Assembly (NCBI GenBank): GCA_044892525.1 | Contig: CM097885.1 | Span: 39,494,001-39,558,000, forward strand | Direction of reading: 5' to 3' | Length of the DNA: 64,000 nt | Source of the DNA: Schmidtea polychroa | Lineage: Eukaryota | In this document: piece by piece, positions 22,843 to 55,748 of the stretch | How the letters are laid out: each line of letters opens with the position of its first letter | How positions within the stretch are numbered: position 1 is the stretch's first letter | Notes under the pieces: model-generated | Seen by the model: only the letters and a program-made list of their open reading frames with translations | Told to the model about the DNA's origin: nothing | Databases searched by the model: none | Position numbers and translations under genes: made by a program

Positions 22843-22990
22843 TCCTATTTATAATACATGGTCATCATACTTGTTTTTGATTTTTCTACATATTGTTTTA
22901 ATTTACTACTTTTATTTTGTACATACAACTACTATTATTACTACTTTTATCGTTTCATTTATACATTATTTACAACAACTCCTCCTCTTG

Positions 22991-24480: not shown

Positions 24481-27400
24481 TGGCTGGATTTGATTTCGAA
24501 GCACTATGCTATGTAGTGGGGACTTTCGCTTTTTGTTTTCTGTTTTGTCGAATCCTTGATCTTCACCGCGACATTGGTCATCTTCGTCTTCTTCCAACTC
24601 CTCATCATCATCCGTTGTTTCTCCGCCCTCCGGATTCTGTTCTCTGTCGTTTTCCTCTGGGTTGTTATCGTTATCCCGCATCCTTTCGTCGTCGTCGTCA
24701 TCGTCATTCCTCTCACCCGGGGTTTTCCCAAAAATGTCGTCCTCGACATTTGTCGCTTTGATCATCTCTTTGTATTTTTTAATTATCTCTTTTTTATCGT
24801 TGTGGATACTTTCTCGTTCTTCTTTGGTTCCTTGATATTTCCGTTGTTTCCGGTGCCATTCCCACACTAGTATTTCTAGTTGCTTTGTCATCGAATGTGC
24901 TTTTGTGCTTTTCCACCAATTACCTGTCAATTCTGCTCTATTTCTTTGTAATATTGCTTTAATGGTTTTTGGCATTGGTGGTCTTGAGTATATGGCGCTT
25001 CTTAGTACGATATATTCGTTGTTCTGGAATTGATTTATATCAATTACTTCCGCTTTGAATTCGTTTTGTTTCCATTTGATTAACATTGCTGCGGTTCTGT
25101 CTAAGTTTCCTCTGATGGCTTCCAGAATTGGTTCAATGCTCTGTCCCAACACCTCGGCTTCTTCGGTTGTTGCGTTTCCCATGATAAAGCTTAGTATGCT
25201 AGGTCTTTTTGACCTGACGGCGTAGCGCAAGATGGTTCGTTGTTTGTTATCTTTTTCTTTCAAAGTAGATCCCGTTCTCAATAATTCTCTGAGTACTTCT
25301 CTTGACGCGCCTTTTGCTATGGCTTTCATCAGTGGAGTTTTCCCTTTACTATTTTTAACGTTTGTCGATTGTTTGCAGTTTTCCATTATTCGTATAATCT
25401 CTAATGCTCGTTTTTCCTGTCCTGCTTTGACTGCATGATGGATTGGCCAGTTATTACTCAAATCACTTGTGAGGAACATGATTGGTAATCTCCGGATTAG
25501 TTCATATATTTGGACTGGTACTTGTAATCCCTCAGCATACCTTCGTCCTTTTGCATATCTTTCTGCTACTATCATTAGTTTGCCTAATACTTGGTATTTG
25601 TTGGTTATATCAGCCCATTCTGGTACAATTTCTCGTGCTATTTTTACTGTCATATTCCATGTCGCTTGACTCCTTGCCATTGCGTCAGCTTCGCATTCTG
25701 CTCCGGTTCCGTTATTGGCGCTGCTGCTTGTTTCTCCCCTCAACATGAATATCCGTCTTGTCTGTGATCTAGTTAATCTACCGCTTACTTCTGGTTCTGT
25801 TGTGGCATTTGTTTGTGATCTCGTGATTATCTTCCTTGTTTCTTGGTCTTTAGTGGCAGTTTTAGCTACTGCTTTACATCGACATGTATTCACGTATATG
25901 GGTCTAATTAGTGGATTGTTAACCAACTTTACTCGAGCGTTGTTCTCGTTTACATAGATGATTTCATATGGTCCTCTGCCATTAATTTGTAATTTCTTTG
26001 CTGTTCCTGGGATTAACTCGGGTGTTTCTATAATAACCCAATCTCCGACTTTAAATTGATGGTTTTGCACGTTCTTCTTTTTATCATGTAATTCTTTATA
26101 ACTTTCCTGGTTGAATCGGATGTTCATTCCTGCGGTTTTCCATATTTCTTGCATTCTCTCTTTGAACTTTGTCACATAATCATCTATCTCCATATATTGT
26201 GAGATGGGCGGTTGGTACATGAGATCCATCGGCATGTTGCATTCCCTTCCGTACATGAGTTTAAACGGACTCATTTTCGTTGCTGAGTGTATTGACATTC
26301 GGTAAGCCATTAGACACAACTTAATATATTCATCCCAATCCTTTTGATGTTTACTTACATAATTTGACATCATGTCTATTAGTATGCCGTTAAATCTTTC
26401 TCTCTGACCATTCGTTTGCGGGTGGTACGGCGAGGTTCTCAATTTGGCAATTCTGAAATAGTTTGTCACTTCATTTATTATCTCGCTCATGAAATTAGTT
26501 CCTTGGTCCGTTAAGATTTGTTTTGGTGTTCCATATCTGCAGCAGATCTCTTCCACTAATATCCTTGCAACGGTTCGTGCTTTTTGGTCCGGCATCGCAA
26601 ATGCTTCAGGGAACTTGGTCAGATAATCAGTTATTACCAATATATACACATTTCCACTGTTAGTCTCTGGTAGTGGTCCAACTACATCCATTGCAATCAT
26701 TGTCATTGGTTCTGGCGGTATCGGCATTGGTTTCAAGGGCGGTTTTAATTTGCTGCCTGTTGTTTTCCTAGTTGCGCATATCAAACAGTTCTTTATCCAT
26801 TCCTTCACGTCATCGCTCATATTTGGCCAGTAATATTTCTGTTTAAGCCTGGCTTCTGTTTTCTTGGCTGACATATGTCCGCCCAATTTACCGTCATGGT
26901 ATTGAATCATTATTTCTTTTCGTCTACTTTCTGGTAAGCACATCAATCGTTTGTCGCCATCCATTACCAATAGCCATCCTTTCTCAATCGTATATCTGTG
27001 ACGATTTTTCTCCATGTGTTCTTTTAATCGATCATCGTTGTTGAATATTTTCATATCGTTTTTATCCAGGAACTCGATTATTAGTTTCAATTCGCTGTCT
27101 TCCTTTTGTTCGTTCTTTAGATTGGTAAAATCGATATCTTCTGCGATTATCATGCATATTCGCCTGACGTCATGATCCATGAGTTCTTCGAACACAAATC
27201 TCGACAAGCAATCCGCATTTGCGTTTGCTTTTCCTGACTTGAATTTAATGTATGGTGAATATTCTTGTAATTGCATTGCCCATCTCATTAATCGGCTGGA
27301 TGCTTCTTTGTGTTGGCCCAACCACACTAGAGGTTGATGGTCCGTAGTAATAATTATCTCGTGTCCCCATAATAAATATTTGAAATGTTTTATCGCCTGA

Positions 27401-27783
27401 ATTATTGCTAAGGCTTCTCTTTCTGTGACTGAATAATTCTTTTCGTGCTTTTTGAACGTCTTGCTATAATATCCGATGACTCTTTTTCGTTTCTCCTCAT
27501 CCCATTGTCCTAGCACAGCTCCTGATGCATATTCACTTGCATCGGTTGCTAATAGAAAAGGCTTTTTGAAATCTGGGTGTATTAAAATGGGTGAGGCTAT
27601 TAATTTATCTCTTAATGATTCGAATGCCATTTGCTGCTCTCTTTCCCACAGAAATGGAGTGTCTTTTTTCGTTAGTTCCTGAATTGGTTTTGCTATAGTT
27701 GCATAATTTTTGATGAACTTGCGGTAGTATCCGCACAATCCCAGAAATTCCTGCACTTGAGTCAGGGTCTTTGGATCGGACAA
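24124..27783 (-). CDS. Pol C-terminal part: RT connection - RNaseH - integrase - ankyrin repeats - acidic region (downstream copy)
   Basis: QEFLGLCGYYRKFI; LATDASEYASGAVLGQ; H..KLGGH...WIKNCLICA; IAMDVVGPLP; ILTDQGTNF; SPYHPQTNGQRERFN; GRGPYEII. Ankyrin repeats WPIHHAVKAG, KGKTPLMKAIAKG and KQRTILRYAVRSK. Confidence 0.95.
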   Translation of the reverse strand: MSDPKTLTQVQEFLGLCGYYRKFIKNYATIAKPIQELTKKDTPFLWEREQQMAFESLRDKLIASPILIHPDFKKPFLLATDASEYASGAVLGQWDEEKRKRVIGYYSKTFKKHEKNYSVTEREALAIIQAIKHFKYLLWGHEIIITTDHQPLVWLGQHKEASSRLMRWAMQLQEYSPYIKFKSGKANANADCLSRFVFEELMDHDVRRICMIIAEDIDFTNLKNEQKEDSELKLIIEFLDKNDMKIFNNDDRLKEHMEKNRHRYTIEKGWLLVMDGDKRLMCLPESRRKEIMIQYHDGKLGGHMSAKKTEARLKQKYYWPNMSDDVKEWIKNCLICATRKTTGSKLKPPLKPMPIPPEPMTMIAMDVVGPLPETNSGNVYILVITDYLTKFPEAFAMPDQKARTVARILVEEICCRYGTPKQILTDQGTNFMSEIINEVTNYFRIAKLRTSPYHPQTNGQRERFNGILIDMMSNYVSKHQKDWDEYIKLCLMAYRMSIHSATKMSPFKLMYGRECNMPMDLMYQPPISQYMEIDDYVTKFKERMQEIWKTAGMNIRFNQESYKELHDKKKNVQNHQFKVGDWVIIETPELIPGTAKKLQINGRGPYEIIYVNENNARVKLVNNPLIRPIYVNTCRCKAVAKTATKDQETRKIITRSQTNATTEPEVSGRLTRSQTRRIFMLRGETSSSANNGTGAECEADAMARSQATWNMTVKIAREIVPEWADITNKYQVLGKLMIVAERYAKGRRYAEGLQVPVQIYELIRRLPIMFLTSDLSNNWPIHHAVKAGQEKRALEIIRIMENCKQSTNVKNSKGKTPLMKAIAKGASREVLRELLRTGSTLKEKDNKQRTILRYAVRSKRPSILSFIMGNATTEEAEVLGQSIEPILEAIRGNLDRTAAMLIKWKQNEFKAEVIDINQFQNNEYIVLRSAIYSRPPMPKTIKAILQRNRAELTGNWWKSTKAHSMTKQLEILVWEWHRKQRKYQGTKEERESIHNDKKEIIKKYKEMIKATNVEDDIFGKTPGERNDDDDDDERMRDNDNNPEENDREQNPEGGETTDDDEELEEDEDDQCRGEDQGFDKTENKKRKSPLHSIVLRNQIQPILLQRIFIILTSFCLTETKHTRIVREAFQEGEVFVIKVSDYDGNAVGICAQLMEGTGVSCDFRSITKGKIFSSQKRDPRLCGDYDICRDITTEEMELERANETGVHFQLNILEEGIEI

Positions 27784-28763
27784 TTTTTTATCTTTTCAAC
27801 ATTTCTCGGGTCTGGTTCCTTTCCCTTTGCCGACACAATATGTCCTAAAAACGTGACTCTCTCTTTTGCCCAATCGCATTTTGACGGCTTCAATTTCAGC
27901 TTCCATTGTTTCAGTCTCACAAATACGTTCCTGATGTCGATTAAGTGTTGCTCGAAGGTACCTGAATATATCAACAGATCATCAATATACACAATACATT
28001 GTTTAATTCCGTGTGTCACAAAGTTCATACATCTTTTAAACGAAGCAGGTGCATTTGTTAATCCGAATGGCATCTTTTTAAACTGATATAAATCTTTTCC
28101 GATGGTAAAGGCTGTCTTTTCTCTATCTTCCTCTTTAACTTTAATTTGCCAGTATCCACTCTTTAGATCTAACGATGTAAAGTATGCTGCTCCATGCAAC
28201 ATCTGTAACATTTCGTTTATGTCTGGCAGTGGATATGTATCCCTTTTCGTTACTGCATTCAACCTCCGATAATCAATACAAAATCTCTGTGTGCCGTCTT
28301 TCTTTTTGACCATTACTACTGGGAATTGCCATGGTGAACAGCTAGGTTCTATTACTCCGGCATCTAACATCTTTTGTACTTCTTCCTCTGCTACCGTTTT
28401 TTGTGCTTCGGCTAATCGATATGGTCTCAAAGTTATGGGTGTCTCATCTGTTAATGGTATGATGTGTTGAGTTACATCGCTAGTACCCAAATCCAAATCT
28501 GAAGCCGCAAAAATATCTTTAAACTCAATCAGTAGTTGTCTGAGTTGTTCCTTTTCGTCTTCATTTAGGAGTTCGCTATCGATGGTCCATAATTCTTTTT
28601 CATCTGCTCCCTCGCTTTTTATCTCCGGCAGCTCAATGTTCATCATTGGTGTGAGTTTTCCAAGTCTCTCGTTTTCGTAGATTACTTTATCTTCCTCATC
28701 AAAATTGGTGATGTTGATGGGTATCTCGTTATCCTCATTTATACTGACAATTTCTCTTGCCAA
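27762..28763 (-). CDS. Reverse transcriptase (downstream copy)
   Basis: LRPYRLA, IEPSCSPWQFPVVMVKKKDGTQRFCIDYRRLN, FTSLDLKSGYWQI, MPFGLTNAPASF, VYIDDLLIYS. A 1-nt frameshift to RNaseH lies near 27780 (expected CPxPKTLTQ). Confidence 0.97.
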   Translation of the reverse strand: MAREIVSINEDNEIPINITNFDEEDKVIYENERLGKLTPMMNIELPEIKSEGADEKELWTIDSELLNEDEKEQLRQLLIEFKDIFAASDLDLGTSDVTQHIIPLTDETPITLRPYRLAEAQKTVAEEEVQKMLDAGVIEPSCSPWQFPVVMVKKKDGTQRFCIDYRRLNAVTKRDTYPLPDINEMLQMLHGAAYFTSLDLKSGYWQIKVKEEDREKTAFTIGKDLYQFKKMPFGLTNAPASFKRCMNFVTHGIKQCIVYIDDLLIYSGTFEQHLIDIRNVFVRLKQWKLKLKPSKCDWAKERVTFLGHIVSAKGKEPDPRNVEKIKNCPIQRP

Positions 28764-28790
28764 TGGCAGCTCCCTTCTCTTCTCGAATTT

Positions 28791-30209
28791 TTAACTTGGT
28801 TCAAATATCATATCTCCTTTGGCTTCGTTATCGACCTTGACATAACATATTGTCTGGGTACGTGCTGGTATTATCATTTTTTCGGAGCATCTCACTTCTG
28901 TTCTCATTGTGCATATCTGTCCAGTTTTATATTTTAATTTCATGGAACTCAAATCAATCACAATTTCTTTCAATAACTCCGGCATTACATCTGTTCCAAT
29001 TATACATGATACACTTAATTGTCTAATGACTGCGAGGTACGTCGTAACTTTAACTCCTTTATATTCGATCGTTGAACATACTCTTCCTACCACCGCTATG
29101 GATTGTTTGCTGCATGTTATTACATCCATGGTTGTCTCCTCAATGAATGGCCATAGTCTACCTGGGAGCATATTCATATTTATTGCTGAGATATTTGCTC
29201 CGGTATCGATCATTGCATCCATCTCTATTCCGTTTACTTCAACCGTGATGGTTAAGGATGGTCCGGCTGGTGTGTGTAATACCGCAATCGTTCGTGTCTC
29301 AACTTCTTGTTCTACACTTTTAGTCTGTTTGATCATCGTTGGATCCATTGCTGCCCAATTTGGTTCATAAGCTGTTGGATAAATGTTCGGTATGGGTAAT
29401 CTTCCGGTTCCCATTCTTATCCGTTCTCTCATTGTTCCTGGTCGTCGCATTGGTCCATTAGTTGGGGCCTGTAAATATGGTAATCCCCATGGTTTCATTT
29501 TTTCGTTTTCCCAAGTGGCTGTGTTTTTGTTTATCAACATTGCTCCTCCTTGGTTATTATCATCGTCGTCAAAATCATCATTGTCATCACTATCATCGTC
29601 TCGTCTGAGGTTCATCCACTTTTTCCACTTCCCGGTTCTTTTCGCTTTCTCTTGAGTTCTTTCTGCTTCTAATCTCATTATCACTTTGAACTTACGTCCG
29701 ACTTCTTCGTCTGTCCCTTTCATTTGCGTTAATATTTTCAACAATCTTTTTATTCGATAGATATCCTTTGAGTGTCCATGCAACACCATTGTTTTCGCTA
29801 AGAACGGTAAGAATCCAATTGCCAGTTTCCAATTTACTTTTCTCTCGCGCTTATAGATGTCAAAGCATGCTAGCATCTGGGTTAGTATCACTCTGACTAT
29901 TTGTATTATCAGAATAATTCCGAGTATCCCTGCCATCATTTGGCCAAATACTAAAAATCTACCCCACATAGCCTTCATCATGTTTGCTGTTGCCTGTTGA
30001 TAGTGACTTGGTGATAATAATAGCTCGTAGTTCGGGCTCTCCCCATAATTATTTCCTCCAGAAATAGTCACTATATTTGATAAAATCGCTTGTCTTTGTG
30101 CTGGGAATAACATATGGGCTCTTGCTGATTCGAGATCTTTTGGTGTATATAATCCACTCTGTGATACATCTATCGGCTTGAACTCTAATTCTGTTGTTAG
30201 TTCCGTCAA
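28791..30209 (-). CDS. Glycoprotein C-terminus/TM fused in frame to aspartic protease (duplicated copy)
   Basis: Same peptide as aa 300-771 of ORF 33557-35872. AMIDTGANIS at 29199-29207, CIIGTDV. Same frame as RT, separated only by a TAA (FEPS*KFEKRRELPLAREIV). Confidence 0.92.
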   Translation of the reverse strand: MTELTTELEFKPIDVSQSGLYTPKDLESARAHMLFPAQRQAILSNIVTISGGNNYGESPNYELLLSPSHYQQATANMMKAMWGRFLVFGQMMAGILGIILIIQIVRVILTQMLACFDIYKRERKVNWKLAIGFLPFLAKTMVLHGHSKDIYRIKRLLKILTQMKGTDEEVGRKFKVIMRLEAERTQEKAKRTGKWKKWMNLRRDDDSDDNDDFDDDDNNQGGAMLINKNTATWENEKMKPWGLPYLQAPTNGPMRRPGTMRERIRMGTGRLPIPNIYPTAYEPNWAAMDPTMIKQTKSVEQEVETRTIAVLHTPAGPSLTITVEVNGIEMDAMIDTGANISAINMNMLPGRLWPFIEETTMDVITCSKQSIAVVGRVCSTIEYKGVKVTTYLAVIRQLSVSCIIGTDVMPELLKEIVIDLSSMKLKYKTGQICTMRTEVRCSEKMIIPARTQTICYVKVDNEAKGDMIFEPS

Positions 30210-30279
30210 TCCGATGATGGATTGTCCAGTTATTACTCAAATCACTTGTGAGGAACATGATTGGTAATCTCCGGATTAG

Positions 30280-32562
30280 TTAATATATTTGGACTGGTAC
30301 TTGTAATCCCTCAGCATACCTTCGTCCTTTTGCATATCTTTCTGCTACTATCATTAGTTTGCCTAATACTTGGTATTTGTTGGTTATATCAGCCCATTCT
30401 GGTACAATATCTCGTGCTATTTTTACTGTCATATTCCATGTCGCTTGACTCCTTGCCATTGCGTCAGCTTCGCATTCTGCTCCGGTTCCGTTATTGGCGC
30501 TGCTGCTTGTTTCTCCCCTCAACATGAATATCCGTCTTGTCTGTGATCTAGTTAATCTACCGCTTACTTCTGGTTCTGTTGTGGCATTTGTTTGTGATCT
30601 CGTGATTATCTTCCTTGTTTCTTGGTCTTTAGTGGCAGTTTTAGCTACTGCTTTACATCGACATGTATTCACGTATATGGGTCTAATTAGTGGATTGTTA
30701 ACCAACTTTACTCGAGCGTTGTTCTCGTTTACATAGATGATTTCATATGGTCCTCTGCCATTAATTTGTAATTTCTTTGCTGTTCCTGGGATTAACTCGG
30801 GTGTTTCTATAATAACCCAATCTCCGACTTTAAATTGATGGTTTTGCACGTTCTTCTTTTTATCATGTAATTCTTTATAACTTTCCTGGTTGAATCGGAT
30901 GTTCATTCCTGCGGTTTTCCATATTTCTTGCATTCTCTCTTTGAACTTTGTCACATAATCATCTATCTCCATATATTGTGAGATGGGCGGTTGGTACATG
31001 AGATCCATCGGCATGTTGCATTCCCTTCCGTACATGAGTTTAAACGGACTCATTTTCGTTGCTGAGTGTATTGACATTCGGTAAGCCATTAGACACAACT
31101 TAATATATTCATCCCAATCCTTTTGATGTTTACTTACATAATTTGACATCATGTCTATTAGTATGCCGTTAAATCTTTCTCTCTGACCATTCGTTTTTGG
31201 GTGGTACGGCGAGGTTCTCAATTTGGCAATTCTGAAATAGTTTGTCACTTCATTTATTATCTCGCTCATGAAATTAGTTCCTTGGTCCGTTAAGATTTGT
31301 TTTGGTGTTCCATATCTGCAGCAGATCTCTTCCACTAATATCCTTGCAACGGTTCGTGCTTTTTGGTCCGGCATCGCAAATGCTTCAGGGAACTTGGTCA
31401 GATAATCAGTTATTACCAATATATACACATTTCCACTGTTAGTCTCTGGTAGTGGTCCAACTACATCCATTGCAATCATTGTCATTGGTTCTGGCGGTAT
31501 CGGCATTGGTTTCAAGGGCGGTTTTAATTTGCTGCCTGTTGTTTTCCTAGTTGCGCATATCAAACAGTTCTTTATCCATTCCTTCACGTCATCGCTCATA
31601 TTTGGCCAGTAATATTTCTGTTTAAGCCTGGCTTCTGTTTTCTTGGCTGACATATGTCCGCCCAATTTACCGTCATGGTATTGAATCATTATTTCTTTTC
31701 GTCTACTTTCTGGTAAGCACATCAATCGTTTGTCGCCATCCATTACCAATAGCCATCCTTTCTCAATCGTATATCTGTGACGATTTTTCTCCATGTGTTC
31801 TTTTAATCGATCATCGTTGTTGAATATTTTCATATCGTTTTTATCCAGGAACTCGATTATTAGTTTCAATTCGCTGTCTTCCTTTTGTTCGTTCTTTAGA
31901 TTGGTAAAATCGATATCTTCTGCGATTATCATGCATATTCGCCTGACGTCATGATCCATGAGTTCTTCGAACACAAATCTCGACAAGCAATCCGCATTTG
32001 CGTTTGCTTTTCCTGACTTGAATTTAATGTATGGTGAATATTCTTGTAATTGCATTGCCCATCTCATTAATCGGCTGGATGCTTCTTTGTGTTGGCCCAA
32101 CCACACTAGAGGTTGATGGTCCGTAGTAATAATTATCTCGTGTCCCCATAATAAATATTTGAAATGTTTTATCGCCTGAATTATTGCTAAGGCTTCTCTT
32201 TCTGTGACTGAATAATTCTTTTCGTGCTTTTTGAACGTCTTGCTATAATATCCGATGACTCTTTTTCGTTTCTCCTCATCCCATTGTCCTAGCACAGCTC
32301 CTGATGCATATCCACTTGCATCGGTTGCTAATAGAAAAGGCTTTTTGAAATCTGGGTGTATTAAAATGGGTGAGGCTATTAATTTATCTCTTAATGATTC
32401 GAATGCCATTTGCTGCTCTCTTTCCCACAGAAATGGAGTGTCTTTTTTCGTTAGTTCCTGAATTGGTTTTGCTATAGTTGCATAATTTTTGATGAACTTG
32501 CGGTAGTATCCGCACAATCCCAGAAATTCCTGCACTTGAGTCAGGGTCTTTGGATCGGACAA
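30280..32562 (-). pseudogene. RNaseH-integrase, upstream duplicate, with a premature stop before the ankyrin region
   Basis: Near-identical to 24124-27783 but GAA>TAA at QIY*. Substitutions ASGYASG and HPKTNG. Confidence 0.93.
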
Positions 32563-32627
32563 TTCTTTATCTTTTCAACATTTCTCGGGTCTGGTTCCTT
32601 TCCCTTTGCCGACACAATATGTCCTAA

Positions 32628-33542
32628 TTACGTGACTCTCTCTTTTGCCCAATCGCATTTTGACGGCTTCAATTTCAGCTTCCATTGTTTCAGTCTCACA
32701 AATACGTTCCTGATGTCGATTAAGTGTTGCTCGAAGGTACCTGAATATATCAACAGATCATCAATATACACCATACATTGTTTAATTCCGTGTGTCACAA
32801 AGTTCATACATCTTTGAAACGAAGCAGGTGCGTTTGTTAATCCGAATGGCATCTTTTTAAACTGATATAAATCTTTTCCGATGGTAAAGGCTGTCTTTTC
32901 TCTATCTTCCTCTTTAACTTTAATTTGCCAGTATCCACTCTTTAGATCTAACGATGTAAAGTATGCTGCTCCATGCAACATCTGTAACATTTCGTTTATG
33001 TCTGGCAGTGGATATGTATCCCTTTTCGTTACTGCATTCAACCTCCGATAATCAATACAAAATCTCTGTGTGCCGTCTTTCTTTTTGACCATTACTACTG
33101 GGAATTGCCATGGTGAACAGCTAGGTTCTATTACTCCGGCATCTAACATCTTTTGTACTTCTTCCTCTGCTACCGTTTTTTGTGCTTCGGCTAATCGATA
33201 TGGTCTCAAAGTTATGGGTGTCTCATCTGTTAATGGTATGATGTGTTGAGTTACATCGCTAGTACCCAAATCCAAATCTGAAGCCGCAAAAATATCTTTA
33301 AACTCAATCAGTAGTTGTCTGAGTTGTTCCTTTTCGTCTTCATTTAGGAGTTCGCTATCGATGGTCCATAATTCTTTTTCGTCTGCACCCTCGCTTTTTA
33401 TCTCCGGCAGCTCAATGTTCATCATTGGTGTGAGTTTTCCAAGTCTCTCGTTTTCGTAGATTACTTTATCTTCCTCATCAAAATTGGTGATGTTGATGGG
33501 TATCTCGTTATCCTCATTTATACTGACAATTTCTCTTGCCAA
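32628..33542 (-). pseudogene. Reverse transcriptase, upstream duplicate
   Basis: Same RT with TTT>TAA at ERVT* and a 13-bp deletion (GAAGGGAGCTGCC) between PR and RT. Confidence 0.93.
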
Positions 33543-33556
33543 TTCTTCTCGAATTT

Positions 33557-35872
33557 TTAACTTGGTTCAAATATCATATCTCCTTTGGCTTCGTTATCGA
33601 CCTTGACATAACATATTGTCTGGGTACGTGCTGGTATTATCATTTTTTCGGAGCATCTCACTTCTGTTCTCATTGTGCATATCTGTCCAGTTTTATATTT
33701 TAATTTCATGGAACTCAAATCAATCACAATTTCTTTCAATAACTCCGGCATTACATCTGTTCCAATTATACATGATACACTTAATTGTCTAATGACTGCG
33801 AGGTACGTCGTAACTTTAACTCCTTTATATTCGATCGTTGAACATACTCTTCCTACCACCGCTATGGATTGTTTGCTGCATGTTATTACATCCATGGTTG
33901 TCTCCTCAATGAATGGCCATAGTCTACCTGGGAGCATATTCATATTTATTGCTGAGATATTTGCTCCGGTATCGATCATTGCATCCATCTCTATTCCGTT
34001 TACTTCAACCGTGATGGTTAAGGATGGTCCGGCTGGTGTGTGTAATACCGCAATCGTTCGTGTCTCAACTTCTTGTTCTACACTTTTAGTCTGTTTGATC
34101 ATCGTTGGATCCATTGCTGCCCAATTTGGTTCATAAGCTGTTGGATAAATGTTCGGTATGGGTAATCTTCCGGTTCCCATTCTTATCCGTTCTCTCATTG
34201 TTCCTGGTCGTCGCATTGGTCCATTAGTTGGGGCCTGTAAATATGGTAATCCCCATGGTTTCATTTTTTCGTTTTCCCAAGTGGCTGTGTTTTTGTTTAT
34301 CAACATTGCTCCTCCTTGGTTATTATCATCGTCGTCAAAATCATCATTGTCATCACTATCATCGTCTCGTCTGAGGTTCATCCACTTTTTCCACTTCCCG
34401 GTTCTTTTCGCTTTCTCTTGAGTTCTTTCTGCTTCTAATCTCATTATCACTTTGAACTTACGTCCGACTTCTTCGTCTGTCCCTTTCATTTGCGTTAATA
34501 TTTTCAACAATCTTTTTATTCGATAGATATCCTTTGAGTGTCCATGCAACACCATTGTTTTCGCTAAGAACGGTAAGAATCCAATTGCCAGTTTCCAATT
34601 TACTTTTCTCTCGCGCTTATAGATGTCAAAGCATGCTAGCATCTGGGTTAGTATCACTCTGACTATTTGTATTATCAGAATAATTCCGAGTATCCCTGCC
34701 ATCATTTGGCCAAATACTAAAAATCTACCCCACATAGCCTTCATCATGTTTGCTGTTGCCTGTTGATAGTGACTTGGTGATAATAATAGCTCGTAGTTCG
34801 GGCTCTCCCCATAATTATTTCCTCCAGAAATAGTCACTATATTTGATAAAATCGCTTGTCTTTGTGCTGGGAATAACATATGGGCTCTTGCTGATTCGAG
34901 ATCTTTTGGTGTATATAATCCACTCTGTGATACATCTATCGGCTTGAACTCTAATTCTGTTGTTAGTTCCGTCAATCCGAATTTTTTGGGTGTTGGTGCG
35001 ATTGTTTTACTTGGGAATTGAACCCATTGTCCATCCTCTTTTTCGTACATTGGTCCATATGCATTACTGCAATTAAACAGATTTGGTTGAAACCCTACCG
35101 GGTTCATTATCCTAGTGACTGCTTGCACAAATCTGGGTTTTCCTCCATGAATAATTTCGAATTCGTTTGCACACTTATCGCTTGGTATTATAGGGTTTCC
35201 TGGCAATCTTGCAATTATCTTTTTGCATTGATAGGTGTACATTACCTCGCCCACGATTCGTCCGAAATATCCTTCTTGCAGTGGTAGTAACGGGATTGCG
35301 TTATCTGGATTTGTAATTGCCATTGCTAATTTTGTTCTCAATATTTCTTTGTTGAGCAGGCAATCGTTTCTTAACAGATCGTGATAGACCTTTTCCGTAG
35401 ATGTTAATCCCCTGTGATATAAGAAATCCATCTTATTATTAGCATATAAATATAATTTGACATCTTTTTCGCTTAGTCTTCCAACTGCATTTGCTAGGGT
35501 TCTCCGCGACAAGTAGATCCCTTTATAATTGGTGCTGATCACCATCTCATCGCATTTACTCACCATTTTGTTCTTTATGAATCTCATTCCTATTCCATCG
35601 TCTTTGGAGATTATCGCTGTGGGTGTTACTTCCGATTCCAATTTCGATGTTAATACGTCTTCTCTGAATCCTTTCCTTGCTCTCAACTCTTCCATCGCTC
35701 GTTTTTCTGCTTCTCCTTTTGGTTCACTGTACACTTTCCCTTGGATTTCTTCGAATATTGCTGTTTTGAGTAACATTAGTCGACATACTTTCTGATCCGC
35801 ATGGTATACCAGAGTTGACATTCCGGTTGAACATGATCGATCTGATGCGAGACAGCTTGGGTATTTCTTCAT
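33557..35872 (-). CDS. Chuvirus-like envelope glycoprotein (C-terminal two thirds with TM) fused in frame to aspartic protease
   Basis: NKMDFLYHRG...VYHDLLRNDCLLNKEILRTKLAMA..NPD...EGYFGRIVGEVMYTYQC...KCANEF...SGLYTPKDLESARAHMLFPAQRQAILSNIV matches recalled chuviral G motifs. TM FLVFGQMMAGILGIILIIQIV. Then an acidic D-run and AMIDTGANIS at 33965-33973. Confidence 0.85.
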   Translation of the reverse strand: MKKYPSCLASDRSCSTGMSTLVYHADQKVCRLMLLKTAIFEEIQGKVYSEPKGEAEKRAMEELRARKGFREDVLTSKLESEVTPTAIISKDDGIGMRFIKNKMVSKCDEMVISTNYKGIYLSRRTLANAVGRLSEKDVKLYLYANNKMDFLYHRGLTSTEKVYHDLLRNDCLLNKEILRTKLAMAITNPDNAIPLLPLQEGYFGRIVGEVMYTYQCKKIIARLPGNPIIPSDKCANEFEIIHGGKPRFVQAVTRIMNPVGFQPNLFNCSNAYGPMYEKEDGQWVQFPSKTIAPTPKKFGLTELTTELEFKPIDVSQSGLYTPKDLESARAHMLFPAQRQAILSNIVTISGGNNYGESPNYELLLSPSHYQQATANMMKAMWGRFLVFGQMMAGILGIILIIQIVRVILTQMLACFDIYKRERKVNWKLAIGFLPFLAKTMVLHGHSKDIYRIKRLLKILTQMKGTDEEVGRKFKVIMRLEAERTQEKAKRTGKWKKWMNLRRDDDSDDNDDFDDDDNNQGGAMLINKNTATWENEKMKPWGLPYLQAPTNGPMRRPGTMRERIRMGTGRLPIPNIYPTAYEPNWAAMDPTMIKQTKSVEQEVETRTIAVLHTPAGPSLTITVEVNGIEMDAMIDTGANISAINMNMLPGRLWPFIEETTMDVITCSKQSIAVVGRVCSTIEYKGVKVTTYLAVIRQLSVSCIIGTDVMPELLKEIVIDLSSMKLKYKTGQICTMRTEVRCSEKMIIPARTQTICYVKVDNEAKGDMIFEPS

Positions 35873-35893
35873 TGCTTGCGTGTCAGGGTCGAA

Positions 35894-37480
35894 CTAACCT
35901 TGATACCTTTCCAATTTGGCTTCATAACTTTCTATTACGACCACTCCACTAACTAGTTGTCCGTTCAGGGTGTATGTTCCTGTCTCACATGTTCCGTCTC
36001 CTTTAGTGATTCTGCCTGCTGTATACCCTCGAGTCGTTTTTATTTTTCCTGGTTCTGCAGCAATTTCAATCCCTTGCCTTAAGTGGATTCTCCCCGATCG
36101 GAATCCTTCCTCGCATTCCTCTCTTGATAGTAATATTACCGTCGATTCCAATCCCGGTTCTATGATTGTTGAGTGGGAGGATGAACCGCAGTGATGTGCA
36201 AATATCTTTCTGGTTACCGTACATTCTTGGACCATGGTTTTGATGAAATCTGCTTCTTGATATACGTTGTACGAGACTGATGCCATGACTGTTTGTAATT
36301 TTCTTGGGTTTGCCGCTTTACAGTCTTCCGTATCCTTTAATGAATATTTCTCATGGATTTTTATGTTGTCGCAGTCGTATACTGCAAATGACTCTGTTCC
36401 CTTGATACACATCATCCATATCAATATCGTGGTTATTATGGCATTCATTCCTTTTCGGCTTGCTCTTGGGTCGTTCATATTGATTGTCCCTTCGAATTCA
36501 GTTAGCAAATCGCGTAACTTTGCTTGCATCATTTCCGTTTGATCTTTCTTCCCAGTTGATTTGATGAAGCTTCTCCATCCCCCTTGTTCGAGTATATATG
36601 GTTCTTTTGATCGTTTGATTATTTCTGTTACTGTGAATTCATAACTAGTTGCGTTATATTTTGGCATTAGTTTTTTATATTGACCAATGACGTTATACAC
36701 CAAATATGCTAATCCCACTAAATATCGATTTTGGTCCTCTGATCTGCTTAATAGATGTTCCACAATTAATCTGAGTTCCATCGGATCCTTTAACGTTAAT
36801 CGAATTTTATTATCCATGATTTTCATTATTATCGGTTTCAATACCGCCCATAATTGTTTGGCTTCGGTTGGAATATTATCCTTCCTCATTATTCTTTTCA
36901 CATCTGGATTTGCTAACGCTAACATGTTAGCTAATAAGTCGTTTATCCATCGTGTCCCTTGTTCCCGGACGTTTGTTTTCACTTTGACTTGTTTTACTAA
37001 TGCACTTAGTTTATCCATTTTAGTTTTTACCTGTTCCATTTGCGCCTGAATTTTGGATTTTGGTTCCACTTCTGCTTTATCTGTTTTTGGTCTTCCTCTT
37101 GTTCGTCGATCCATAGCTGTTCCGGTTTCTTTCCGTTTTGGCGGATTGTAAGTTGTATCTTTTGACGTGGTCGCTCCTGGATCTACTCTCCAGTTGCTCC
37201 ATTCATCGGTTGTGGTTACATCTTTATCGACACCTCTTTCCACATTATCTAAATCCGTCTCGGCTTCTGTCGTTTCCACTGGTTGTCTTTGCGCGCATAC
37301 AAATCCATCTAGATCATCAGTTGTCGGTTCACCTTCGTCGATAAATAGATCTCCTGATTGCGATGCTCTCATAATCTCGCCAGCTTCTACTATCTCTTGT
37401 AATTCATCCAGTATTTCGTCTTCTCCCGTTGTTTTGATCGTTACTTCACTAACCGCATTTGGGACTTCTGGTGTGTCCAA
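35894..37480 (-). CDS. Acidic/Thr region + Bcl-2-like domain + internal signal peptide + N-terminal third of the chuvirus-like glycoprotein
   Basis: YILEQGGWRSFI is BH2-like. MNAIITTILIWMMCIKGTES|FAVYDC is a signal peptide followed by the YDC start typical of chuviral G; then C..HHCGSSSH, LSREECEE, GRITKGDGTCE. In frame with 33557-35872 across one TAG (QG*FDPDTQAMKKY). Confidence 0.8.
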   Translation of the reverse strand: MDTPEVPNAVSEVTIKTTGEDEILDELQEIVEAGEIMRASQSGDLFIDEGEPTTDDLDGFVCAQRQPVETTEAETDLDNVERGVDKDVTTTDEWSNWRVDPGATTSKDTTYNPPKRKETGTAMDRRTRGRPKTDKAEVEPKSKIQAQMEQVKTKMDKLSALVKQVKVKTNVREQGTRWINDLLANMLALANPDVKRIMRKDNIPTEAKQLWAVLKPIIMKIMDNKIRLTLKDPMELRLIVEHLLSRSEDQNRYLVGLAYLVYNVIGQYKKLMPKYNATSYEFTVTEIIKRSKEPYILEQGGWRSFIKSTGKKDQTEMMQAKLRDLLTEFEGTINMNDPRASRKGMNAIITTILIWMMCIKGTESFAVYDCDNIKIHEKYSLKDTEDCKAANPRKLQTVMASVSYNVYQEADFIKTMVQECTVTRKIFAHHCGSSSHSTIIEPGLESTVILLSREECEEGFRSGRIHLRQGIEIAAEPGKIKTTRGYTAGRITKGDGTCETGTYTLNGQLVSGVVVIESYEAKLERYQG

Positions 37481-38164: not shown

Positions 38165-39795
38165 AAATATCGACTGTTCGTTCTCGATGTAATTTGACGT
38201 ATCAATTTAGACGTCCCAGAAGCGATATTTTCTAATGTCGTCGGTCGTTGATAGCAGGCGCTCCTTGGATCTGGTTTCAATGTTTCTTTATGTACGTTAA
38301 GGCTATATTTCAGTGGTTCGATCGCTATCGTTACTTTTCTGCTAAACGGCCATGGTACCTTGTCGTCATAACTTCCTTTGCAGATGATGAAGAATGCCGA
38401 CACATAACTTCTTTTTCCTACTCCGTCTCCGTTCGGGTATATTCGCAATTTCATCTTGTACTCACCTAATCCTGAGTAAAACGGTGGACTTACTAATCGT
38501 GTGATTTTTTCTTCCTTTCCTGATTTTATCTTTTCCATCCAATTCTCAATTTTCCACGTGAATGGTGCTAACCTTACCGGTTCTCGTATCTCCTCATCTT
38601 CTCCTAATTGTAATTCATTTTGGAATTCTTGTGGTAATATATCCTGGTAAGTATCGATTGGTTTCTCTCTTACCCATACTGCTGCGATCTCTTCGGGTAT
38701 ATTATCTATCCAATTTGGTTCCAACTTTTGCTGCTCCCAATCCCATCGAGCTTCACTTTCGATCCACACCTTTTTCCATGGTATCAGTTTGCAATCTTCG
38801 TCATTGAAGGCTGCTAGTTTTAGTTTATCATCCTTTAGCCAATGGTTATAAATATCTATTATTCGATCCATCTTTGCTCTCATTCCCCATTGGAATCTCT
38901 TGATTTGTTGATCAGTTTTGGTGACGTTTTTGTGTCCGCCAGATGGTTCATCCATCGCGATTATATTAATGACGGCTCCATCTTCCCAGATTCCTAGTTC
39001 GTAAATTACAGTTCGGTCTCCTCTTTCTAGCATGTGTCGGTTGTACATTATTATCACATCTTCGATCATTTCATCCTCACTATTTTCTCGAGCTTTTTGG
39101 ATAATCTCCTGATCTATGATTTGTACTAACTCGTCAACTTGGCAATCGGGATTGACTTCTATTATCTGTTTCTCTTCATTTGGCAACTTCACCTTTATTT
39201 TTATCGTTTCTTGTTCGCATTTGGTTCTCTCGTATTCTCCGTATTTTGATATTAATTCTGTTGCTCGTTTATCTTCAAATCTCATAATTTCCGTGTCTCG
39301 TACGTCTTTGACAAATTGTTTCATTAGTTGTGGCCATCTTTCTCTTAGTCTATTAATATATTTCCTTGCCTGATCGATAGCTTGTTTGACCAAGGTTATT
39401 TGGTTTTCTTTCATTATTTTTCGTTCGATCTTTTCCAATTCCGGTTCCACTTCATTGTTAAACACTTGTTGGATTTTCTTGAACATTTCTGTCACTGATT
39501 CGTCATCTCTGGTTTTCTCTAAGGTTAAGGTGTTAGTTTCGTTTGGCCATATCATCGCATCCACCAAATGTATGCCCGTTTTAACTTTGTAACCATCGAC
39601 ATATAATTGTTTATTTTTATGGCTCGTTCCCATCTTTTCCTGTACCCAGTTGTACAGTTCATCAGTATTTGTTCCTTTTAATTCAATGGCCCGTATCTGA
39701 ATCTCGGGGTGTTGAATACTTACTTGGTATTGATCTGGGTCTGCGTCCTTTAGTTTCTCTTTATATTTTGTTGCTAGATCTTTCCATGCTGCCAC
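38161..39795 (-). CDS. Two ubiquitin-like domains plus a TRAF-type MATH domain (polyprotein segment)
   Basis: Ubl1 (~39729-39517) QEKMG..KQLYVDG..GIHLVD aligns with ubiquitin QDKEG..QRLIFAG..GRTLSD. Ubl2 (~39204-38956) IKIKVKLPNEEKQIIEVNPDCQVDEL. MATH: FTWKIENW...SPPFYSG..EYKMKLRIYPNGDG...VSAFFIICKGSYDDKVPWPFSRKVTI. Confidence 0.85.
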   Translation of the reverse strand: MAAWKDLATKYKEKLKDADPDQYQVSIQHPEIQIRAIELKGTNTDELYNWVQEKMGTSHKNKQLYVDGYKVKTGIHLVDAMIWPNETNTLTLEKTRDDESVTEMFKKIQQVFNNEVEPELEKIERKIMKENQITLVKQAIDQARKYINRLRERWPQLMKQFVKDVRDTEIMRFEDKRATELISKYGEYERTKCEQETIKIKVKLPNEEKQIIEVNPDCQVDELVQIIDQEIIQKARENSEDEMIEDVIIMYNRHMLERGDRTVIYELGIWEDGAVINIIAMDEPSGGHKNVTKTDQQIKRFQWGMRAKMDRIIDIYNHWLKDDKLKLAAFNDEDCKLIPWKKVWIESEARWDWEQQKLEPNWIDNIPEEIAAVWVREKPIDTYQDILPQEFQNELQLGEDEEIREPVRLAPFTWKIENWMEKIKSGKEEKITRLVSPPFYSGLGEYKMKLRIYPNGDGVGKRSYVSAFFIICKGSYDDKVPWPFSRKVTIAIEPLKYSLNVHKETLKPDPRSACYQRPTTLENIASGTSKLIRQITSRTNSRYL

Positions 39796-40241
39796 TCATT
39801 TTTCCTGAACCAATGTTCTTTCACTTTTTCTTTTATTTGTTCCTCAGTTAATGTAGGGTTTTTGTTTTTGATTCTATCTTCGATTTTTTGTAGTAGTACC
39901 CTCTGAATTTGATTTTTTGTAACTATCTCATTGCTTTTTGGTTCGTCTTTGCTCTCATCCCTTTTTTGTCTCCTTTCTTTTTCCTCTTTGGTAAATTCTT
40001 TAATCAATTGTATTTTCTCTTCACTGCTCAATTCTGTCTGTGGATCAATCTCATTTTCTTTTGTCATTTTTATCTCCTCGTTTATTATCGGATCACTCCC
40101 TTCGTTGTTAACACACTGCTCCGCAGTGTGCGATTCCTCTTTATTTGTTAATCTCATCATATTTATTCTTCCGGGATTCGCTTCCGTTGTTTCCATCTTT
40201 CTTGAATTTCTCTGGCTTCCTCGTTTTATAATCTTTGCCAA
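39774..40241 (-). CDS. Charged coiled-coil segment between gag and the Ubl region
   Basis: 155-aa E/K-rich ORF overlapping both neighbours in the -1 frame. Contains GRINMMRL. Confidence 0.55.
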   Translation of the reverse strand: MAKIIKRGSQRNSRKMETTEANPGRINMMRLTNKEESHTAEQCVNNEGSDPIINEEIKMTKENEIDPQTELSSEEKIQLIKEFTKEEKERRQKRDESKDEPKSNEIVTKNQIQRVLLQKIEDRIKNKNPTLTEEQIKEKVKEHWFRKNEWQHGKI

Positions 40242-41431
40242 TCGATTCGTTGTTGGTCTTGTTGTTGCTTACTCGGTTGTTTCCGGATTTCCTCGGTGCT
40301 CTGCATCATATTGTTTCGTTGCTGTTGATTATTAACCGGTATTTGTTGGATCATATCTTTTAATTGTTCGATTTCCTGCATGAGGTTAATTTGTGTGTTC
40401 TGACTTGGATTGTTTGATCCTGGTTGATTTGGTTTGGTTCTCATCGTGCATTCTCTTGCCATGTGTCCAGGTTGATTACAATTGTAGCAGGTTCTGGTTC
40501 CTCCTCTGCCCATAGACATCATGGGTCCTCTGCAGACATTCTCCGTGTGGCCTCTTCTCCCACATTTTTGACACATCCTTGCTTTATAACATTCATTGCT
40601 CCAATGCCCTGATCGTTGGCATATGTTGCACGTCCGATTGTTAATGTCGTTGTTCCTGAAATTATTAGTAAAATTTTGAATATTACCTCCATTGTCTTGG
40701 TTTCTTGTTTGTGGAGTTTTGAACAACTGTTTCGATCCTGGGATGAATTGATTCATTACTGGATTCGCATTATTGACTTGATTGTTTGTGGTTGTTGATG
40801 TTGTTGCTGGAGCTGCTGGAGCTGCTGTCATTGCTGCTACTTGTATTGGTGTTAGGTAAGTTTCACATTTGTTAGCTATTTTTAGTGCTTCTTCCAGCGT
40901 CTCTGGTGCTCGACATCCCAAGGTTGCTCGTATATCCTCTCGTTTCATGCCATCTACGAATACGGCTATTATTCTGTCTTCCGGAACTGGTTGATTTGAA
41001 TCGAAGGCTTCTCTTGCTAGTCGTCTCAATTCGCATGCGTACAGTGCGTTGGATTCGTTATATTTCTGCTTTCGATGCAGAAAGTCTAACATTTTTCGAT
41101 TTCCTTCTTTCTCGATACCGAATGTTTTTATTAAAAACTCCTTGATCTCTTTCCACGTTCTCAACTTTGTTGCATCGCATTTTGCCTCTAAATATACATC
41201 TTGGGCGCTTCCCTTTAGATATAGGGGTATTCGTTCTCGTACGACTATGTCTGGCCAGTGACATATCGTAATGTATACTTCAAATTCTTTTATAAACGTT
41301 TCTAGCTGGTTTATATTTCCATCGAATGGCTCTCCTCGAAATTACTCTCTGAATTCTCCAATGTTGACGTGCACATTACTTGTTTCCGGTGGATCCGTTA
41401 CCCCTGTTCCATTTGGAGTCCCGTCTGCCAT
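40226..41431 (-). pseudogene. Gag of the giant element (capsid + three CCHC knuckles), one in-frame TAA at 41342-41344
   Basis: MADGTP...GEFRE*FRGEPFDGNINQLETFIKEF...RIPLYLKGSAQDVY...RTWKEIKEFL is continuous in frame. Knuckles CNICQRSGHWSNEC, CQKCGRRGHTENVC and CYNCNQPGHMAREC. The frame stays open further upstream toward 41842. Confidence 0.9.
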
Positions 41432-43139
41432 TATTTCTTGACACAAGATTCTTATATTGGTTGATTCTGAACTATTTCCTTCCTCGTCTGTTGATTCGGT
41501 GTCGCTTATCGGATCTAGTTCGGGTCGTTTGAAATCGTCGCTGTTCTCAAATTCGTTAGTTAAACTGTCCGATTCAAATACTGTTTCTACTGATGCTGGT
41601 TTCTTGTGTAGTTTTCTGTTTTTCTTGGCTCTTTGTATCCCTTCCCTGACCCCACCGATGTATATGGTACCAGATGTACCGGGTCCGGAGACGGGTGATC
41701 GTCTGCTGGTCAGTACCCTCGTCACTGCTAGAGCTAGATTGCGACATGTCTGTAATATAAATATTAGGACCCGTGTATAGCCCGTGTGGCTTATAAATTT
41801 AAAGTACGATAAAATATACAACATTTTACCCAAATAGTGCATTAATCACCAAAGTTATTAATATATATATATATATTCAACAATTAATCACCAAAGTTAT
41901 CCCAATCAATGCCTTTACATTTAATAATTAACCATCAAAGCTATCATAATTAATATATATACATTTAACCTGAAATTTTCGATTTAATTTATTGGATATC
42001 CTGTTAACTAACTAATTGGAAGAAAAATTTTGTCATCCTTTTAATTAATCAAATGAAAGAAAAAATTTTTTCAATGTTGAGTATTAATACTAGAAAGTTT
42101 ATGCCCCGAGCGATAATTCTCCAAAAGTCACTTTGTTTTAAATCATTATTTTATTCACCAAAAGTTATTTACCACTAGTTGGTAATTTAAAAATTCTTAT
42201 GTCAATTCTTTGCCATTTTCTGGAAATTATCGAATTACTACTGAATTCAGGCACGCCGGGGTGATGGGTATTAGCGACGAGCTTAGTTTCTCGTTTGCTT
42301 ACCTCTCCCTTGGTTGTGTTCGTCATGAGTGGTACAGTCGACTTTCATGCATTTGAGGTAATTCATTTATTTACCGTAAATTTTGATTCCCAGGAATGTT
42401 GGATGATAACTTTTCCTGGTTGGAGATGGATGAGCCTAGTTTTGGGAGATCATCCTACGATTCATAATTTTTGATTCTTAGTGGCTTGGTAATATGATTT
42501 GTTGTTCATAATAAAAGAAAAATCTTATGTTTTTATTAATAGTAATTTAATCTTCTAATAAACGAAGTTATATATTTGCCATTCATTCAGGATTTAAAGG
42601 GGGTAGTTTATATGTTGGATCAGGTACTCTCACCCATATCCTCAGCTAACCTAGATGGTGTTAACATTTTCTAGGGGGAGGGGTGTTGCTTAAAATAACT
42701 TTCTAGTATTTCAGACATTCCTATTAGTTCAAAAAGGTTGATTCCAAATTTAACTCCGGGGGGGAAATCCTAAATCAATATTTGATTTAGATTTTTATTT
42801 TTGTGACCTACAACTTATGAATAGGGACAATGATAGTATTAGCNNNNNNNNNNNNNNNNNNNNNNNNNNNNNNNNNNNNNNNNNNNNNNNNNNNNNNNNN
42901 NNNNNNNNNNNNNNNNNNNNNNNNNNNNNNNNNNNNNNNNNNNNNNNNNNNNNNNNNNNNNNNNNNNNNNNNNNNNNNNNNNNNNNNNNNNNNNNNNNNN
43001 NNNNNNNNNNNNNNNNNNNNNNNNNNNNNNNNNNNNNNNNNNNNNNNNNNNNNNNNNNNNNNNNNNNNNNNNNNNNNNNNNNNNNNNNNNNNNNNNNNNN
43101 NNNNNNNNNNNNNNNNNNTATCAATTATAATATTGATAG

Positions 43140-43810: not shown

Positions 43811-46206
43811 TTACTTCACCACTCGTCATTTCATAATTCAGGGTTTATAATTTTATAGTCGACTCGTATACTTCTTTATGAGTACCCTTTTTGATCAATA
43901 TTGTCTTCTAAAATTATTCGCAGATTTCTTGGTACTATTAGCGTATAATTTCAGAATATTGACGGGTCTACAGTCTATACATAACTAGTTCTAAGTTAAT
44001 TGATCCTTATGCTAAAATTTATTTACTATTATCCCCATCTGAAACTTATTATCAAGACTTCTCCATTATCAATTTATATTTTCAGGGTCGATATAATTTA
44101 TATCTAAAATCTCATAATTATCTATAACTTGCATTTTGACTATAATTAGCAAATTTTATAATAAGTACTTATATCTTTATAAATATTTAAGATGGGCGCT
44201 TGAATTAATAGATCTGTAATTTAATCGGTTAGATTTGTAATATCTATAGGTAGATTGAATTTATTCGCATAGTAATTAATCTCGAAGTCCCAACTAGATG
44301 AGGTTATACCCACACATATGCCGGACACTTTATCATTTCTATTACTTGAGTTACTACAAATTTCTATTACCAAAATCGGATTCGGCATATGTCTAAGTAC
44401 AACTGGAATGGCTATTATTGATCAACCGACTTCATTAAGGTGATTGCAGAATTGTGTAAGGTTAGGTATGAGTTCTACTCAGATTAAGACCTTATTGTAG
44501 AGATATTTGACATTGATTTTTAATGTTGATTTTAAATTTGTATTACGTACAAAGTCGGGAAGAATATTGCTTCCATGGCCCCACTGTGACCACTTCCACA
44601 AACCTTAGTGTTGAGTGTTGAGTCAACCATTTACGGTCGACCTTACATAAATACAAAGAGTCAGACGGAGGATTTCCTCGACCTAACTCCGTGGCAGAAC
44701 CACAAAGTAGTTCGACCTTCGAAGGACCCGAACAAAAGAAATCATATAGTATCGATCAATATAGTACGAATAATGCATGTTGGTAGGTTGCATAAAAATT
44801 TTATTCGATATCTTCCAATGCAGGACGGAATAGCGACGCACAGTGACGCCGCTGATCAGTCATATTTATCTAAATAACAACGAATTTAGTAAGAATAATT
44901 TAATTATAGAATGGTGTTCATTAAAATGGTTACATACACGGTTAACATAAAAACAATGCAATCAAAAAATACCTACTATCAGTTTCCTTCAAAATTTGGT
45001 CAACAAAAAATTTTGGCATAAATGACTAAATTATGCCCGAAACGTGTCGGTATATATACCTATTTTGTACACGTGTATGTATTGATACAGTAAAACAAAC
45101 TCGAATTCTTTTTATTCCAGAATTTTCTATTTAGCGATTTTGCTATTTTTAATGGCAATTTTTGTGCCATAATTTTTGTTTTTATTTTTATATTTTTATT
45201 TTTTAATTATTTTTCGTTAATTTGCCGTCCATGATGGATTTGGAACGGTTCCAGAACATTCTATTTTACTTTTAATTTAATTTTTATTCTAACTGATGTT
45301 TTGTGAATTTCTTTTTAAGATTTATTATTTTTAATACTAATTTATTTATTTTCTCTAACTTTTATTGTTCTAGCTGGCTTTGTGATGGTCATCGCCATTT
45401 TAATGGAATGTTCTGGGTTTTTCTTGAATTTTTTCTGTTTTTATCGTCTTTTAAGTTGTTCGAGTCTGTTTTATGCTTATCTGTGTTTATTTGGTTGTTT
45501 TTGAGTTCTATTTTTGCATCACTTCTTGCTTTTGGATAATTTTATTTAAATTCTGTGTTTATGTTTTTTGTTGTTTTTCCTTTAATTACTATTGTTTATT
45601 TGATGTAATTTTAATATTTAACTATACTTTGTGCTTTTTTACTTGGTGTGTACCTACACATTTCGTTCATAATTAGAAGTTTGGGTCTAGAAATCAGTTC
45701 TAGCCCAACACTACTATCATCATCCAGCAATATAATCAGTACAAAGTTTTCACACTCCTACTCCGGCATTCATCTGTTTCATATATTTAAAGACTATTTC
45801 TTGTCTGATATCAGGACAGTACATGCCAAAATCTGTTAATGATTGAAGGAACTGTTTTACCTCGTATTGTGACTTCCTTACCCAAAAGTAAAATCAGGCG
45901 AAACTGGAAGAAAGTGAATAAGCTGGTAAATCTGCATTTGAATGTAAAATAAAATTGATATAGTTAACTTATCAAGCATCATTGGGGCTTTATAAATGTT
46001 TAAGATCCATAAAATCATCTGCAAGTGGTATATTTCTTTGAGTAAGAATATTTGAAAGTGAAAGTCGAATCAGCAAATGTAAAATTTATTAAATATATAT
46101 AAACCAATAAAATTAATTAAAATTCCAATAAATTTCAAAAGATTCGCTATGAATGTATCCATATATTAAATAAACCAACTCCTATAAAACTAACAATATA
46201 ATACAA

Positions 46207-50991: not shown

Positions 50992-50993
50992 AC

Positions 50994-55745: not shown

Positions 55746-55748
55746 TTA

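Follow-up and report, generated by a model that had tools for sequence, protein, structure and literature searches.

A chuvirus-related envelope glycoprotein in frame between Gag and Pol of a giant Ty3/gypsy element family of Schmidtea polychroa, with a predicted internal signal sequence

The question raised by the stretch of Schmidtea polychroa DNA analysed here (assembly GCA_044892525.1, contig CM097885.1, positions 39,494,001 to 39,558,000; 64,000 nucleotides, referred to as the window) is how a membrane glycoprotein can be produced when its gene lies between gag and pol and is fused in frame to the protease. The region 33557..36448 of the window is the env gene of a decayed copy of a giant Ty3/gypsy element, which matches the published description of Burro. 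The layout is already known, since Burro/GYPSM1 planarian elements of more than 30 kb with an in-frame env between gag and pol were described in 2019 (PMC6431247) and GAG-ENV-POL elements with envelopes of the glycoprotein B (gB) type are described from Platyhelminthes, Nematoda and Bryozoa (PMC13524379); the novelty implied by the first-pass annotation of this locus therefore does not hold. The reading preferred here, with a probability of about 0.65, is that signal peptidase would free the glycoprotein (G) at a signal internal to the polyprotein, the Gag side would stay anchored, Pol would follow on the cytoplasmic tail, and the parts in the cytosol would be set free by the element protease. 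What is added is the purifying selection on env, the sequence support for a cytosolic Pol and the location of the signal roughly where a Bcl-2 tail anchor would be.

The element of the window lies on the minus strand in the order gag, MATH, Bcl-2-like region, glycoprotein, transmembrane (TM) segment, protease, reverse transcriptase (RT), RNase H, integrase and ankyrin. The segments around env are given below, with pN/pS denoting the ratio of nonsynonymous to synonymous differences per site.

36554..36826, minus strand: Bcl-2-like (BH1-BH2) region directly before the signal, found by own profiles only
36389..36448, minus strand: predicted internal signal sequence (hydropathy peak; kept in relatives; pN/pS 0.10)
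34724..36388, minus strand: predicted class III fusion glycoprotein ectodomain, 555 amino acids, 14 Cys, one sequon (PF24664; fold prediction)
34628..34723, minus strand: transmembrane segment (Kyte-Doolittle 19-residue peak 2.53; 21-residue uncharged run)
34562..34591, minus strand: short second apolar stretch carrying GxxP, not expected to span the membrane (10 uncharged residues between flanking K/R)
34016..34561, minus strand: predicted cytoplasmic tail and linker, with an acidic run at about 34366-34325 (from sequence; pN/pS 0.34 in the first 70 codons)
33740..34015, minus strand: aspartic protease, DTG at 33973 (PF00077, PF13975)

A single minus-strand reading frame carries the hydrophobic run at Met 36448, the YDC motif at 36379, the TM segment (34723-34628), the acidic run and the DTG motif. 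This part of the first-pass annotation stands, but an in-frame TAG at 35896-35894 splits the ectodomain, so these parts do not share one open reading frame (ORF) in this copy. Upstream of the signal the frame continues without a stop for 362 codons, which contradicts the placing of the signal at an ORF start. Behind the protease, a stop at 33559-33557 is followed by a frameshift. The 28791 copy is not independent but an internal tandem duplication: 25435-30214 repeats 30214-34980 (4.78 kb, 99.4% identity over 4,780 bases). Its RT is indeed in the protease frame, but behind a stop at 28793-28791. The window copy is unable to make a Gag-Env-Pol polyprotein.

The identity of the glycoprotein was examined by profile, sequence and structure comparison. 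Both halves of the ectodomain matched PF24664 (E 7.5e-24 and 8.7e-45), and G, with an X at the break, aligned with the G of the chuvirus Tacheng tick virus 4 at 25% identity over 616 amino acids (E 3e-45). The AlphaFold2 monomer model built from 106 sequences reached a pLDDT (predicted local distance difference test) of 90.3 and a pTM (predicted template modelling score) of 0.71. Its best predicted-structure matches were chuviral and related G proteins (E 4e-39), while the best solved structures were herpes gB (E 1.8e-14), with a TM-score of only 0.34-0.41; the sequence-profile match to gB alone was weak (E 0.012). The chuvirus-like glycoprotein between gag and pol, for which a comparison with chuvirus G and herpes gB had been proposed, is borne out by these results. 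All 17 ectodomains compared contain 14 Cys, and the furin motif R-x-K/R-R was found in none of the 17. G is predicted to be a chuvirus-related glycoprotein with a gB-like (class III) fusion fold. Tacheng tick virus 4 (Morsusvirus, Chuviridae) shares the signal-YDC start and gave the best viral match among predicted structures, whereas its G is a free-standing 658-amino-acid gene of a negative-strand RNA virus. The shared ancestry with chuviral G does not show the direction or the date of transfer.

The damage of the window copy made it necessary to read the layout from the family. The DNA search of the genome gave 667 candidates, and the 39 copies besides the window among the 40 scored were 95-96% identical. 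The search with part of G gave 2,079 candidates, of which 148 were scored, and revealed at least 148 matches at 96-100% identity. Frames of at least 4,700 amino acids enclose 64 of these 148, and 42 lie in frames of exactly 4,791 (stop to stop). In all three cases checked, the 4,791 frame opens 135 codons upstream of the gag motif and closes behind a second TM segment, which lies beyond integrase and ankyrin. At the family level the signal is ruled out as the true N-terminus, since the frame opens ahead of the gag motif; it lies inside a polyprotein of about 4,790 amino acids headed by Gag, a point that goes beyond the first-pass annotation, as does the broken state of the window copy.

Sharing of the frame was counted at 48 loci other than the window, representing 47 distinct places, with the TM motif found in 46. 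TM segment and protease share a frame in 40/48 loci and the run from signal through TM segment to protease is unbroken in 37/48, so the proposed in-frame fusion of env to the protease stands for the family and no conserved break separates the two. From YDC to DTG, 19 of 20 copies keep one frame with a spacing of 802 amino acids; from the gag knuckles to the protease one frame was kept in 6/20, with the remaining breaks at scattered places. The post-protease stop of the window copies was present in none of 43 anchored family copies and the ectodomain stop in one. A copy about 80 kb before the window start (L042) is 99% identical in G and has the same ectodomain stop, pointing to a local duplication that followed the breakage. 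Family elements measure 35.4-35.6 kb, with long terminal repeats (LTRs) of 4.9-5.05 kb at 99.3-100% identity, and have TG..CA ends and 4-bp target duplications; these values come from three of four copies mapped, the fourth extending past its sequence stretch. The order protease, RT, RNase H, integrase between LTRs is that of Ty3/gypsy (Metaviridae). The Burro-type order of Gag with three CCHC knuckles, MATH, Bcl-2-like region, env, protease, RT, RNase H, integrase and ankyrin, plus BIR, is present, with the Bcl-2-like region found by own profiles and not by Pfam. Ubiquitin/SUMO-like and dUTPase-like domains gave no Pfam match at E 0.01; HHpred was used for these in PMC6431247. The in-frame gag-env-protease layout is real at the family level. 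A second element family (L103-L107) has frames up to about 3,050 amino acids in which a Bcl-2-like domain is followed by signal and YDC.

Selection on the polyprotein was measured as all-pairs pN/pS over 21-43 copies per region after an identity filter, in pairs that are not independent. The ectodomain gave 0.058, the TM region 0.050, the signal 0.097 and the protease 0.049; the first 70 tail codons, at 0.34, are less constrained, and the frame upstream of the signal stays open with 0.105. Env was clearly under purifying selection, like the protease, while the family spread. The window copy is broken, internally duplicated and within a tandem array, as might be seen if a chuvirus-derived endogenous viral element had inserted by chance into one decayed retrotransposon, or if the assembly were faulty. 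Such an origin is ruled out by the genome matches, the purifying selection and the shared frames, and with the same fusion present in relatives whose G is only 28-48% identical it is scarcely credible.

These relatives are unnamed polyproteins and are closer to G than any virus. Twenty, picked for length or position from 150 listed, were scanned. A Pfam protease follows G in one protein in 14/20; of the other six, five stop within G or shortly behind it, and one carries a DTG-type motif. A gag domain precedes G in 3/20. Free-standing relatives begin with the same signal-YDC unit. P0158, P0012 and P0005-P0010 have several protease-like domains in one polyprotein: seven Pfam stretches in P0158 (4,844 amino acids), and 2-4 DTG/DSG motifs after the TM segment in others. 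P0008, a G-Pol polyprotein labelled 'Flavobacteriaceae bacterium' from a metagenome-assembled genome, is likely mis-binned animal DNA.

Membrane topology was assessed from hydropathy and charge. Signal peptidase favours small residues at -3 and -1, and by this rule and a hydropathy scale the cleavage is predicted directly before FAVYDC; in the window signal, a basic n-region is followed by a short h-region, and both positions hold small residues. The 13-residue hydropathy peak of the signal is 1.7-3.3 in relatives. Among the 12 relatives passing the pattern (18 examined), seven lack any Met within 40 residues upstream of the h-region, which favours an internal signal, although the window family does have a Met at that place. 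In 14/15 proteins that carry the motif (18 examined), the second apolar run is 10 residues long, contains GxxP and is flanked by K/R. Beyond integrase, a second signal and TM segment occur in 5/7 long relatives, and exactly four hydrophobic peaks in 3/7. The family polyprotein closes, at 22991-24480 (minus strand) of the window, with another signal-like run, an ectodomain rich in Cys and sequons, and a TM segment, so that Pol lies between two predicted membrane proteins. A second TM crossing soon after the first, which would place Pol in the lumen, is unlikely given the 10-residue run and the later signal and TM segment. The evidence fits a topology of cytosol, lumen, cytosol, lumen, cytosol with a cytosolic Pol; its first three parts agree with the earlier proposal.

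Signal peptidase and the element protease probably share the processing of the polyprotein. The Gag-MATH-Bcl-2-like part would be made in the cytosol, and the internal signal would thread the ectodomain into the endoplasmic reticulum (ER). Signal peptidase would free the N-terminus of G and leave the upstream part anchored in the membrane by the signal. The TM segment would stop transfer, so that protease, RT and integrase would emerge in the cytosol on the Env tail, and the second signal and TM segment would insert a last membrane protein. The element protease would then release the cytosolic parts, and Gag and Pol may meet at membrane carrying Env trimers and bud as enveloped particles. Hepatitis C virus (HCV) core-E1 offers a functional analogy only, between unrelated proteins: the HCV capsid precursor ends in the signal of the next glycoprotein and stays anchored after signal peptidase cleavage (PMC5402940), an anchoring shown for HCV and proposed here from sequence.

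Several observations weigh against this processing scheme. The h-region has only about 13-15 residues with a 19-residue hydropathy of 1.35, which may make insertion inefficient; a single sequon occurs in the ectodomain; the second apolar run of P0017 has 21 residues; P0022 and P0158 (2/7 long relatives) have extra hydropathy peaks inside Pol; the topology comes from simple hydropathy and charge counts, not SignalP or DeepTMHMM; and the copy pairs behind pN/pS are not independent. A Met at the start of the h-region in this family makes a separate start possible. Retroviruses usually make Gag in excess, and the 1:1:1 ratio of Gag, Env and Pol expected here would differ. Neither in this analysis nor in the papers drawn on has a protein, cleavage site, particle or fusion been seen.

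The short h-region and low 19-residue hydropathy would also suit a dual topology, in which a weak internal signal is partly skipped, the skipped chains forming a cytosolic Gag-Env-Pol precursor that supplies Pol and the translocated chains giving Env; Pol would then stay covalently tied to Gag, as in other Ty3/gypsy elements. This is unlikely, since the signal is under strong purifying selection and clearly hydrophobic in relatives, the strong TM segment would still send skipped chains to the ER, and an ectodomain with 14 Cys would likely misfold in the cytosol. The Met 36448 directly before the h-region, conserved in 19/19 family copies compared, and the free-standing relatives that start with the signal-YDC unit agree with Env coming chiefly from an RNA of its own, spliced or internally started, as in errantiviruses, with the in-frame position being incidental. 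That route is very unlikely: no stop follows the TM segment, which shares a frame with the protease in 40/48 loci, so Env would still carry Pol; most relatives passing the pattern lack a nearby Met; and the upstream frame is open and selected. Contigs from four runs, whose status as RNA was only guessed, gave no well-supported joint removing or isolating env. One contig in one run skips 71 bases at 41401-41473 near the 5' end of gag with non-canonical ends, representing a deletion or an intron.

Processing might also occur as proposed, with Env used for fusing cells to one another, or for budding and transfer inside cells, and not for free infectious particles. The apoptosis and ubiquitin modules and the second membrane protein fit manipulation of the host cell, and literature searches gave no particle report. 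The class III fusogens of the family of G are virion glycoproteins, however, and nothing specifically favours cell-cell fusion, which leaves this use of Env quite improbable.

The Bcl-2-like region upstream of the signal was analysed separately. It scored 11.2 bits with own profiles of host-type Bcl-2 only (shuffle maximum 5.1) and 25.3 bits when element segments were added (shuffle maximum 7.5). It matches P0014 (E 3e-5), which in turn matches PF00452 at E 0.00096; no match was found in Pfam, ESM Atlas or PDB sequences, and none of the 150 listed matches of PF00452 could be tied to the family of the window element. The h-region starts 45 residues after the GGW motif of this region (31 and 59 in two relatives), and Bcl-2 proteins carry a tail anchor at roughly that distance after GGW. 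As no Bcl-2 part can be recognised in several relatives, the internal signal is independent of such a part. A tentative extension of the preferred reading, with the odds against it, is that the Env signal also serves the Bcl-2-like part as its tail anchor and tethers Gag to the membrane, and that Pol enters the particle on the Env tail and not as Gag-Pol. If so, enzyme packaging, and perhaps activation of the protease by clustering of Env trimers, would depend on Env. No description of such an assembly route was found in literature searches.

Burro of S. mediterranea is the closest known system, with more than 30 kb, one giant ORF (4,873 amino acids against 4,791 here) and env between Bcl-2 and protease. 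Its ORF1 is described with three CCHC knuckles, MATH, ubiquitin-like and BCL2-like domains, env, protease, RT, RNase H, integrase and ankyrin, besides BIR (PMC6431247). The likeness rests on this published description and not on a reference sequence, so the family is not assignable to one of Burro1-4. The same account matches Burro env to mononegavirus fusion glycoproteins and likens it to gypsy Env by HHpred, whereas the model of G matches class III gB and chuviral G; its Burro section is without discussion of signal, topology, processing or second membrane protein. BURRO1 RNA is reported in PIWI-depleted planarians (PMC8532177), which could not be tied to the family of the window element. 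Smed_errantivirus_1-6 (PMC13524379) share the gene order, a gB-type env flanked by signal or TM segments, and the host group. None of the six listed env segments belongs to the window family; the nearest, number 6, is about 70% identical by eye across some 180 residues, compared with 96-97% within the family. That paper argues for an ancient association of gB-type envelopes with retroelements; in its main text 'polyprotein', 'in frame' and 'Burro' each occur 0 times. Canonical Drosophila errantiviruses have a separate F-type env ORF 3' of pol, whereas env here is of gB type and in frame before the protease. Env also precedes pol in the nematode non-canonical endogenous retroviruses of Sacco et al. 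2022, as cited in PMC13524379. Atlas virus (10.1101/2021.11.23.469668) likewise has env inside a single retroelement polyprotein (2,828 amino acids), but it is a belpaovirus with a C-terminal class II env. Literature searches gave no printed account of the processing or topology of such a polyprotein; Sacco 2022 and Grohme 2018 may hold one.

The remaining parts of the window element are as follows.

44462..45710, minus strand: recognisable part of the 5' LTR, with the TG start at 45710 (80% to the family LTR over about 1.3 kb)
40226..41845, minus strand: gag, capsid and CCHC knuckles, split by a stop at 41344-41342 (PF03732, PF19259, PF00098)
38173..38562, minus strand: MATH/TRAF-C domain, in the gag/G frame in family copies (PF21355, E 1.7e-22; PF22486)
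30280..33566, minus strand: RT, RNase H and integrase, first copy, broken (PF00078, PF17917, PF17921, PF00665)
25435..30214, minus strand: tandem duplicate with the C-terminus of G, TM segment, protease, stop 28793-28791, RT, RNase H and integrase (99.4%; junction read)
22991..25434, minus strand: polyprotein end in pieces, with ankyrin, acidic stretch, second signal-like run at about 24480, Cys-rich ectodomain and TM segment at about 23317 (PF12796; hydropathy)
20174..22848, minus strand: accessory ORFs, comprising a 153-amino-acid frame, TRAF zinc finger with MATH, and BIR (PF02176, PF21355, PF00653)

In family copies, the accessory ORFs 3' of the polyprotein have about 153, 487 (TRAF zinc finger and MATH in one frame), 392 (BIR region) and 533 amino acids. 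The 533-amino-acid ORF is missing from the window copy, and BIR is truncated where the window element ends, at about 20242. No second copy of the 5' LTR piece was found in 1-20300, the 3' LTR being lost from this copy. Units of 3.26 and 3.63 kb, which are 97-99.9% alike, are arrayed in tandem over 1-20244, with unit pieces also at 45711-48021; the element appears to sit within this array, minus its 3' LTR. Plus-strand ORFs of 410, 984 and 337 amino acids at 50901-58253, between the direct repeats 50405-50991 and 55749-56335, are probably another LTR element.

As the layout is on record, little is added here as discovery. If signal peptidase separates Gag from Pol, then Pol would have to be packaged without a Gag-Pol fusion, a solution different from the retroviral one and from that of other Ty3/gypsy elements. 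Whether such elements move between cells could well be asked in this family, which is present in many copies, was recently active and encodes a fusogen under selection, in a model animal rich in stem cells.

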